Made by a program: the position numbers and the translations under genes. 55,898 nucleotides of DNA from Diploschistes diacapsis. Lineage: Eukaryota. Each line of letters opens with the position of its first letter. The first letter of the stretch is position 1. Positions 5,872 to 51,842 of this stretch are shown here, piece after piece. Below the pieces are notes generated by a model, which saw only the letters and a program-made list of their open reading frames with translations, had not been told where the DNA came from and ran no database searches. The stretch spans positions 1-55,898 of the forward strand of contig JALAIB010000006.1 in the NCBI GenBank assembly GCA_023645945.1, given 5' to 3'.

Positions 5872-7224
5872 TCAGTGACCAGCAAGCGCATGTGCCCTAC
5901 GGCGATCTCTCTCTTCAGCAATCGTAAGCTAGAAGGCGTTAGTAAATCATATCAAGCACTAAAGGCCAAGCTTAATTACCTTAACGCCCTTGCCCTTAGG
6001 CAGACTGATCCATGGCTTCTCATGTCCTATAACAAACACGTTCGTCTCGCGCGTCGCGAACGAGTTGTCAATAGCATCTTTGATGTGGACGATGTTGAAA
6101 CCTCCGTCGTGGCGTTCCCGGTGCGCGATGACACCTACTCGACCCATGTTGCGGCCACCAGTGACCATGGCAATGGCGCCTGTGTCAAATTTGATGTGAC
6201 TCGTGATCTTGCCTGTCGCCAAATCGATCTTGACAGTATCGTTTGCCGATATAACCGGATCAGGATAGCGAATGCTAAATATCCCCAAGCACTCGTCAGC
6301 CTCTATGCCTCCCAAGACTTGGCCCAACGTCTGAAAGATGCGGCAAACTTACGTTCGTGCATCATGCGTAACCAAGTAGGGGACACCTCCTCTTCCGACC
6401 TGCACCCTCTTAACCTTGCCAAGTTTGTATTCTGCCTCTTCAGCCGTGATACGGTGAACAGCGAAGCGTCCCTTCGTGTCATACACTAGTCGAAAGTTTT
6501 CGCCAGTCTTTTCGATAGAGATGACATCCATAAAGCTGTTTAAGAAGTTAACAATGGCTGGAACACTTCCGTTATTCACAAGGGCACCAGTGAGTGCAGA
6601 GATTTCGCGTACGTTTCTTAGCGCATGCTCACCAAGCCTTGCGTGGAATTGTACGCGGAATTTTCTGTACCAACTGACAACGATAGAAGTACAAAAAAGT
6701 ATCATATGAAGGGCAGGAATATTGTGTGCCTAAGACATACCCAGCAGGATAGGTCGTATCGGTTCTGACCTTTCCGTCCACGCGGACGAGGCGTTGCATC
6801 AAAATACTTTGCACTTCCTTTGCCGTCGTCAGACATTTTTCAAGTATTGAAAGAACTATGAGAGATTAACCTTGCCGTTGAGAGCATACTTGAGACTAGC
6901 AGCACGGTAAGCGTAAACACCGAGGAGTAGGCAACTTCACATACCGGTTCCGTAGGAAGACAATCAATGGCATGCAGTCGCGAAGCTTATGGGGACCGGT
7001 ACTTGCTCTAGGAGCGTATGCACCACTAAGCTTGTCTAGAAGCCAATGAGACGGCGCTGAAAGCCGTTTTTGACTGAAAGCGCGTCAGGTGTCGTTTCAT
7101 TTTGTATCTCTGATCCAGCCCAGCTTACTGTTTCTTCCTAATCAAAACGTCAGTGACAGTGCTCCCCTACCCCCATCACAGGCAAGGAAAATGCCGGCAG
7201 GAATACTTACGGTCCACGAGCCAT
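5872..7224 (-). CDS. RPS4: 40S ribosomal protein S4 (eS4), multi-exon including a 9-nt micro-exon
   Basis: Spliced translation [23 protein letters not shown]...[46 protein letters not shown]...GGRNMGRVG...[27 protein letters not shown] at 7222-7224, TGA at 5872-5874. Confidence 0.97.
6598..6700 (-). ncRNA. Candidate intron-encoded box H/ACA snoRNA (snR83/SNORA4-like guide for 18S rRNA)
   Basis: Inside the 205-nt RPS4 intron: hairpin TGTAC..GTACA, then AGAAAA (ANANNA H box), then hairpin CGCGTAC..GTACGCG. The internal loop strands TTCCAC and GCTAAGAA are complementary to 18S UUCUUAGU-UG-GUGGAG. A canonical ACA tail is not seen (AAA variant only). Boundaries are approximate. Confidence 0.5.
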
Positions 7225-51762: not shown

Positions 51763-51842
51763 AGCCGAACGCGGGGGTCGAACCCGCAACCTTGAGATTG
51801 TGGACTAAGAGTCTCACGCTCTACCGATTGAGCTAGCCCGGC
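51763..51842 (-). tRNA. tRNA-Lys(CUU) with a 7-nt intron
   Basis: Minus strand GCCGGGCTAGCTCAATCGGTAGAGCGTGAGACT-CTT-A[GTCCACA]ATCTCAAGGTTGCGGGTTCGACCCCCGCGTTCGGCT. Acceptor, D, anticodon (TGAGA/TCTCA) and T arms all pair. Confidence 0.97.

Follow-up and report, generated by a model that had tools for sequence, protein, structure and literature searches.

A long RPS4 intron of Diploschistes diacapsis may encode an atypical H/ACA-type guide for the equivalent of yeast 18S Ψ1290

In Saccharomyces cerevisiae, snR83 guides pseudouridylation of 18S rRNA at Ψ1290 and Ψ1415, and a preliminary description of the DNA analysed here named SNORA4 as the guide for the equivalent human site. Ψ1290 is tabulated as snR83-guided in two reviews (PMC8307265, PMC5699541), and in the first of these its modification level exceeds 85% and the site is marked as conserved in human. 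snR83 is itself structurally atypical, and only its 3′ hairpin could be folded in a 2008 study (PMC2551606). It is transcribed independently and, by homology search, is confined to Saccharomyces (PMC5824354); the relevant text of PMC5033589 reports that it was not found in Candida species.

Intronic H/ACA RNAs of filamentous fungi, such as ACA1 and ACA9 of Neurospora crassa (PMC2780460) and a candidate described by Gao et al. in 2021 (PMC8216456), lie in sense-strand introns of protein genes and are built as hairpin, hinge and hairpin. They are 136–201 nt long and conserved across species, and they have ACA boxes. The main text of the first paper lists 20 H/ACA RNAs for N. crassa and assigns none of them to the U1290 equivalent; the same holds in the main text of the second for the candidates of Gao et al., whose survey covered Aspergillus and Neurospora. 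A guide for this site outside Saccharomyces is absent from the main texts of the fungal surveys. H/ACA-like RNAs with an incomplete set of boxes have also been described, namely “intergenic structures 1, 3, 4” of Gao et al. and the single-hairpin AGA-box guides of trypanosomes (PMC8216456), both of which have guide-like interior loops and partial H/ACA signatures.

Here we describe the fifth intron of RPS4, which encodes 40S ribosomal protein S4 (eS4), in D. diacapsis. The candidate RNA in this intron would address the same uridine as snR83; unlike snR83 it would be processed from an intron and, should it prove real, would count as a functional analogue of that RNA and not as a detectable homologue. 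It shares the sense-strand position with the filamentous-fungal RNAs, and its two predicted hairpins may follow their hairpin-hinge-hairpin order, whereas its size, its box and its lack of conservation set it apart from them. Its guide-like loop and partial signatures resemble those of the intergenic structures and the AGA-box guides, but H/ACA-like RNAs lacking the full box set are backed by covariation across hundreds of genomes (PMC8216456), whereas the candidate is a single sequence. We did not find an RPS4-hosted snoRNA in the literature searched.

The window, that is the whole 55,898-nt stretch of contig JALAIB010000006.1 that was analysed, carries RPS4 with 8 exons, 7 introns and 262 codons. 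The gene model was built from splice-site motifs and translation, and the protein starts at 7224 with MARGPKKH. In gene order, the introns measure 73, 55, 49, 53, 205, 78 and 51 nt. Intron 5 is thus 3–4 times as long as its six neighbours, and the contrast drawn in the preliminary description (205 nt against ~50–70 nt elsewhere in RPS4) holds, the other six introns spanning 49–78 nt. Intron 5 begins with GUAUGU and ends with ACAG, and its excision fuses TYPAG with FMDVISIEK. Coordinates of all features are given in Table 1.

Table 1. Positions of the RPS4 features and of the candidate guide elements in the window
Feature	Position	Strand	Basis or remark
RPS4 coding region	5872..7224	-	splice sites, translation; exon 7 84–91% identical to the best 80 of 283 metagenome relatives
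RPS4 intron 5, 205 nt	6536..6740	-	after codon 84, phase 2, TYPAG/FMDV
Hairpin A, candidate 5′ hairpin without pocket	6661..6698	-	stem 8–11 bp, loop 16–18 nt; −8.7 kcal/mol alone
AGAAAA, candidate H box (ANANNA)	6661..6666	-	part of the hairpin A 3′ arm in the MFE fold
Hairpin B, candidate guide hairpin	6606..6657	-	lower stem 6657–6651 / 6612–6606, upper stem-loop 6642–6623
5′ pocket strand AUUCCAC	6643..6649	-	pairs with 18S GUGGAGU 3′ of the unpaired UG; duplex −8.1 kcal/mol
3′ pocket strand GCUAAGAA	6615..6622	-	pairs with 18S UUCUUAGU 5′ of the target U; duplex −7.4 kcal/mol
AAA directly after the lower stem, candidate ACA-box variant	6603..6605	-	17 nt from the pocket top
Likely branch-point motif UUAAC	6547..6551	-	predicted from sequence; 12 nt ahead of the 3′ splice site
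End of exon 6 plus the 41 nt that open intron 6	6312–6381	-	RNAalifold, 50 sequences

Two further features of the gene model were observed. Exon 2 is 9 nt long (7137–7129, minus strand; GAAGAAACA), encodes the end of P5, two lysines and the start of the following histidine, and sits between the 73- and 55-nt introns. It is placed by splice motifs and protein consensus, and it is needed in the model because the conserved GPKKH would otherwise be lost. Intron 4 (6818–6870, minus strand) is 53 nt long, follows codon 59, has the unusual 5′ end GUUAAU and is missing from every related locus whose alignment spans the site.

Exon 7 was used as a query against metagenome contigs; of the 283 relatives recovered, the best 80 (84–91% identity) were kept. 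Intron 5 was absent from all 74 of these best loci that have both flanking exons, and the exons were contiguous. The next intron is missing as well from nine of these loci, which may be cDNA; the remaining 65, representing 53 distinct loci, are genomic, and because none of the 65 contains intron 5 the intron is specific to the D. diacapsis lineage. Judged from these alignments, the lineage would have two private RPS4 introns, 4 and 5. A blastn search with intron 5 against the 56-kb window and the 80 loci yielded nothing beyond chance matches, none longer than 18 nt, and this set holds no second copy that would point to a repeat or introner-like origin.

Within intron 5, two adjacent hairpins are predicted. 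The arms that the preliminary description had proposed for hairpin A (6696–6689 / 6670–6663) pair over 8 bp with one G-U, and the minimum free energy (MFE) fold lengthens this stem to 11 bp (6698–6688 / 6671–6661); hairpin A is a plain stem-loop. The perfect 7-bp basal stem proposed for hairpin B is present as CGCGUAC / GUACGCG, and the hairpin has a predicted energy of −18.5 kcal/mol, or −14.1 kcal/mol with the pocket forced open. Its internal loop has an 8-nt 5′ strand and a 10-nt 3′ strand. The pocket strands named earlier, UUCCAC (6648–6643) and GCUAAGAA, pair with 18S rRNA as described, with two G-U pairs and an unpaired UG, but the count of 6 + 8 bp becomes 7 + 8 bp because A6649 pairs with the next U. 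In the predicted pairing with the 18S fragment used here (L096, see below), the unpaired UG sits where the upper stem of hairpin B begins, which is the correct H/ACA geometry.

The intron as a whole folds no better than expected. Its MFE is −46.2 kcal/mol compared to −43.7 ± 4.2 kcal/mol for shuffled sequences (z = −0.58), and 57 of 200 shuffles were at least as stable. The earlier label of a “long structured” intron therefore applies locally, to the two hairpins, but not to the overall fold. In the MFE structure, intron positions ~31–36 pair with 159–164 and enclose hairpins A and B.

The rRNA used for comparison came from fragments on eukaryotic contaminant contigs in prokaryote assemblies. 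The set consisted of a fungal-like 18S (L096), a yeast-like sequence (L114) and a eukaryotic LSU (L117); a plant-like sequence (L116) was dropped. The 19-nt 18S motif named in the preliminary description is identical in at least 40 fungal-like, plant-like and protist-like loci, all of which were picked by the presence of that motif. The unpaired target U lies 510 nt from the 3′ end of the 18S in L114, which, with yeast 18S rRNA taken to be 1800 nt long, makes it U1290. This distance, together with the two review tables, agrees with the earlier identification of the target as the snR83-guided yeast Ψ1290. As a side observation, L081–L120 include at least 40 contigs labelled bacterial or archaeal that contain eukaryotic rDNA (plant-, fungal- or protist-like 18S) and are contaminants, and the 18S of L117 has a group I intron.

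We compared these elements with the known architecture of H/ACA guides. The 7 + 8 bp of guide pairing, with the target U and one further nucleotide unpaired, is more than the 8 bp, including 3 bp or more per side, that have been published as the minimum (PMC7991803). The H box is less clear. The AGAAAA proposed as such is present at 6666–6661 and fits ANANNA; it also fits AGANNA, the form taken by about 80% of fungal H boxes (PMC5824354), but there is overlap with the 3′ arm of hairpin A, and the motif is base-paired in the MFE fold. When the upstream part was shuffled, ANANNA occurred within 12 nt upstream of hairpin B in 406 of 5,000 shuffles, and AGANNA in 43 of 5,000. ANANNA together with an adjoining hairpin of at least 8 bp, as in the real sequence, occurred in 28 of 5,000.

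The 3′ end of the candidate departs from the standard design. No ACA follows hairpin B at the position of the box, where AAA is found instead at 17 nt, just as the preliminary description had cautioned; the sole ACA downstream of hairpin B overlaps the 3′ splice site. AUA, AAA and AGA are documented alternatives to ACA (PMC7991803), AAA being rare, and a fungal survey in which 2,255 H/ACA snoRNAs were folded found ACA highly conserved and variants at its middle position rare (PMC5824354). An ANA within 2 nt of the stem arose in 1,819 of 5,000 shuffles and an ACA in 650 of 5,000. Because ANA near the stem is common by chance, the AAA does not strengthen the case for a guide, and the absence of the C weakens it. 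The 17 nt from pocket to box (8 guide, 2 unpaired and 7 stem nucleotides) compare with a distance of 14–16 nt, or 15–16 nt in eukaryotes (PMC7991803), and would fit only if A6614 and C6613 bulge out, giving a helical length of 15 bp. The candidate unit, from hairpin A to 3 nt past the AAA, is also small, at ~100 nt compared to a minimum length of 115 nt in a survey of over 2,000 fungal H/ACA snoRNAs (PMC5824354).

Guide homology, for which the preliminary description had looked to Rfam, did not appear. A search of 501 nt (6400–6900) gave no family matching intron 5, either at the gathering score or at E values up to 10. No SNORA family was matched, and neither SNORA4 nor snR83 (if the latter is in release 15) was recovered with covariance models up to E 10. 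At gathering score, Rfam recognised a single element in the window, a tRNA gene (51763–51842, minus strand, 55.4 bits). Neither CUGA nor UGAUGA occurs in the 205 nt, and a box C/D snoRNA as passenger of the intron was rejected for want of a C or D box. An alternative layout with hairpin B as the 5′ hairpin and AAAUCU as the H box was also rejected, as no convincing 3′ hairpin lies downstream. The proposal of an H/ACA guide thus stands on its pocket geometry, the identity of the target, the statistical excess described below and a 5′ hairpin with an AGANNA motif in the right place, but three defining features depart from the canonical form, with AAA in place of ACA, 17 nt in place of 14–16 nt and an H box predicted to be paired, and no Rfam family matches.

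We then set the complementarity against chance. Among 1,395 uridines (L096 18S and L117 LSU), the U1290 equivalent was the single hairpin-embedded match of intron 5 (guide ≥13 bp, upper stem ≥3 bp, lower stem ≥5 bp), and the pocket site was unique in 5.8 kb of rRNA even when relaxed to 4 + 5 bp. With the pocket fixed and the rRNA shuffled, the control also used by Gao et al. (PMC8216456), a 7 + 8 bp site with at most two G-U pairs arose in 1 of 20,000 shuffles of SSU plus LSU and in 0 of 20,000 of SSU alone. Dinucleotide shuffles of the intron gave a looser match to some U (≥14 bp, lower stem ≥5 bp) in 61 of 1,053 cases, and reached the observed quality (≥15 bp, lower stem ≥7 bp) in 2 of 1,053. 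In real sequence, 544 non-overlapping 205-nt segments from both strands of the window were scored; 28 reached the looser thresholds and 3 the strict ones, the intron 5 match included. The other two strict matches have 20–21 nt from pocket to stem end and no ANA box. A scan for guides of the U1290 equivalent over both strands of 739 kb (the window and 80 related loci; ≥14 bp, ≤2 G-U, upper stem ≥3 bp, lower stem ≥5 bp) found no second match. Three weak near-misses near RPS4 of relatives were dismissed as chance; they have no boxes and are probably coding sequence.

A hairpin-embedded match to some U is therefore common at loose settings, in ~5% of random 205-nt stretches, and a match of the observed quality is rare, at 0.2–0.5%. 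About 44 pseudouridines are known in yeast rRNA, roughly 3% of its uridines. Because the target is among known pseudouridines (~3%; up to ~8% with human sites), the chance for intron 5 falls to roughly 1e-4 to 4e-3; the scan thresholds were fixed after the match had been seen, and the looser figures are the safer ones. With 28 looser matches to some U in the window, one chance match on a known site in 56 kb would be unsurprising. The case for a guide rests on the match lying in the one long sense-strand intron of a ribosomal-protein gene.

Overall, we lean, by a little over even, towards intron 5 encoding an H/ACA-type guide for the U1290 equivalent that is functional though atypical. The analysis shows the sequence with its hairpins, the 7 + 8 bp complementarity and the target identity, and shows that all of this together is rarer than chance. 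This reading is favoured because the guide match, its target, the hairpin with its H motif and the host context agree; our estimate is held down because the box is AAA, the ruler measures 17 nt, the H box is paired, the unit is small and conservation lends no support. On this model, intron 5 would be spliced out and debranched, and exonucleases would remove whatever Cbf5/Nop10/Gar1/Nhp2 do not protect, leaving an RNA of ~100 nt (~6700–6600, minus strand) in which hairpin A is joined by the hinge AGAAAA to hairpin B, with AAA as the tail. Hairpin B would use its internal loop to pair with 18S rRNA on both sides of the U1290 equivalent, in the helix 34 region, and present the target U and the following G unpaired to Cbf5 for conversion of the U to pseudouridine. 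The model implies that a stable RNA would accumulate, that H/ACA proteins would accept an AAA box at 17-nt spacing and that the U would be modified in the host.

The main competitor is that intron 5 is an ordinary long, lineage-private intron that yields no stable RNA, and that the match of hairpin B to 18S rRNA is coincidental. We regard this as unlikely, though as a serious contender: nothing shows selection on an intron missing from 65 of 65 genomic relatives, ACA is lacking, the spacing is 17 nt, the H box is paired, the unit is only ~100 nt overall, Rfam gives no match and the overall fold is unremarkable. Loose matches to some rRNA U are also common, both in shuffles (61/1,053) and in real segments (28/544). 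However, the match lies at the strict end (2/1,053 shuffles, and 1/20,000 with the pocket fixed) and falls on a known conserved pseudouridine and not on any U. The adjoining hairpin with an AGANNA motif, present in fewer than 1% of shuffles, and the sense-strand position within an intron of a ribosomal-protein gene likewise argue against coincidence. If it is one after all, the case is a useful calibration, with hairpin-embedded 14-bp matches in ~5% of random 205-nt stretches.

The intact pocket and stems beside an aberrant box and spacing could also point to a decaying or recently inactivated guide, in which ACA has mutated to AAA while another genomic copy now serves. We consider this improbable, since little decay is to be seen in a lower stem of 7 perfect pairs and a guide of 15 pairs with no interruption, since AAA is accepted as a variant of the box (PMC7991803) and since no second copy is known. 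Least probable by far is that the hairpins aid splicing of a long intron, for example by drawing the splice sites together, with no role in rRNA modification; the long-range pairing that encloses both hairpins in the MFE fold (~31–36 with 159–164) would favour this reading, but the enclosing fold is no stabler than shuffles (z = −0.58), and the 15-bp bipartite match to one rRNA site would be left unexplained.

A separate structure was observed at the next intron of RPS4. Intron 6 (6352–6275, minus strand) contains a motif that is near-invariant in the same-position intron of relatives (consensus UCAGNCGUUGGNCCAAGNUUUGG). RNAalifold predicts that the last 30 nt of exon 6 pair with this motif to form three helices that enclose the 5′ splice site. 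The alignment comprised the window and 49 distinct loci from L001–L080 (the best 80 of 283), giving 50 sequences. In these helices 98.8% of 850 cells were paired, compared to 15–54% with the partners slid, and compensatory changes occurred in 2 of 17 pairs, a count reached by 2 of 500 shuffles. The paired exon 6 codons are fixed at synonymous sites, with TTG and ACG in 50 of 50 sequences. Intron 6 is 100–261 nt long in 44 of 65 genomic relatives, many of which have a conserved 3′ partner, CAACGG, for CCGUUG. Mimicry of rRNA by the motif was rejected, as blastn against 18S and LSU gave only matches of 10 nt or less. The structure looks like a candidate autoregulatory splicing element of RPS4, and we found no description of it in the literature searched, which included parts of PMC8216456.

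Returning to intron 5 as a guide, a more specific version is that a functional minimal H/ACA guide (~100 nt), with an AAA box and an extended ruler, was born in or with the lineage-specific RPS4 intron and is convergent with snR83/SNORA4. We put this version forward tentatively and think it rather unlikely. If true, its convergent origin would be a documented birth of a snoRNA inside a young intron, and the box, spacing and size rules accepted by snoRNA finders would be relaxed. A validated guide of this kind would also explain why search programs miss such guides, because it breaks three of their built-in rules (the ACA, the 14–16 nt distance and the size). Ψ1290 is a highly modified position near the decoding region of 18S rRNA that is conserved between yeast and human. 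With the known fungal guide, snR83, confined to Saccharomyces in the literature cited above, a validated guide for U1290 from a filamentous fungus would fill a gap.
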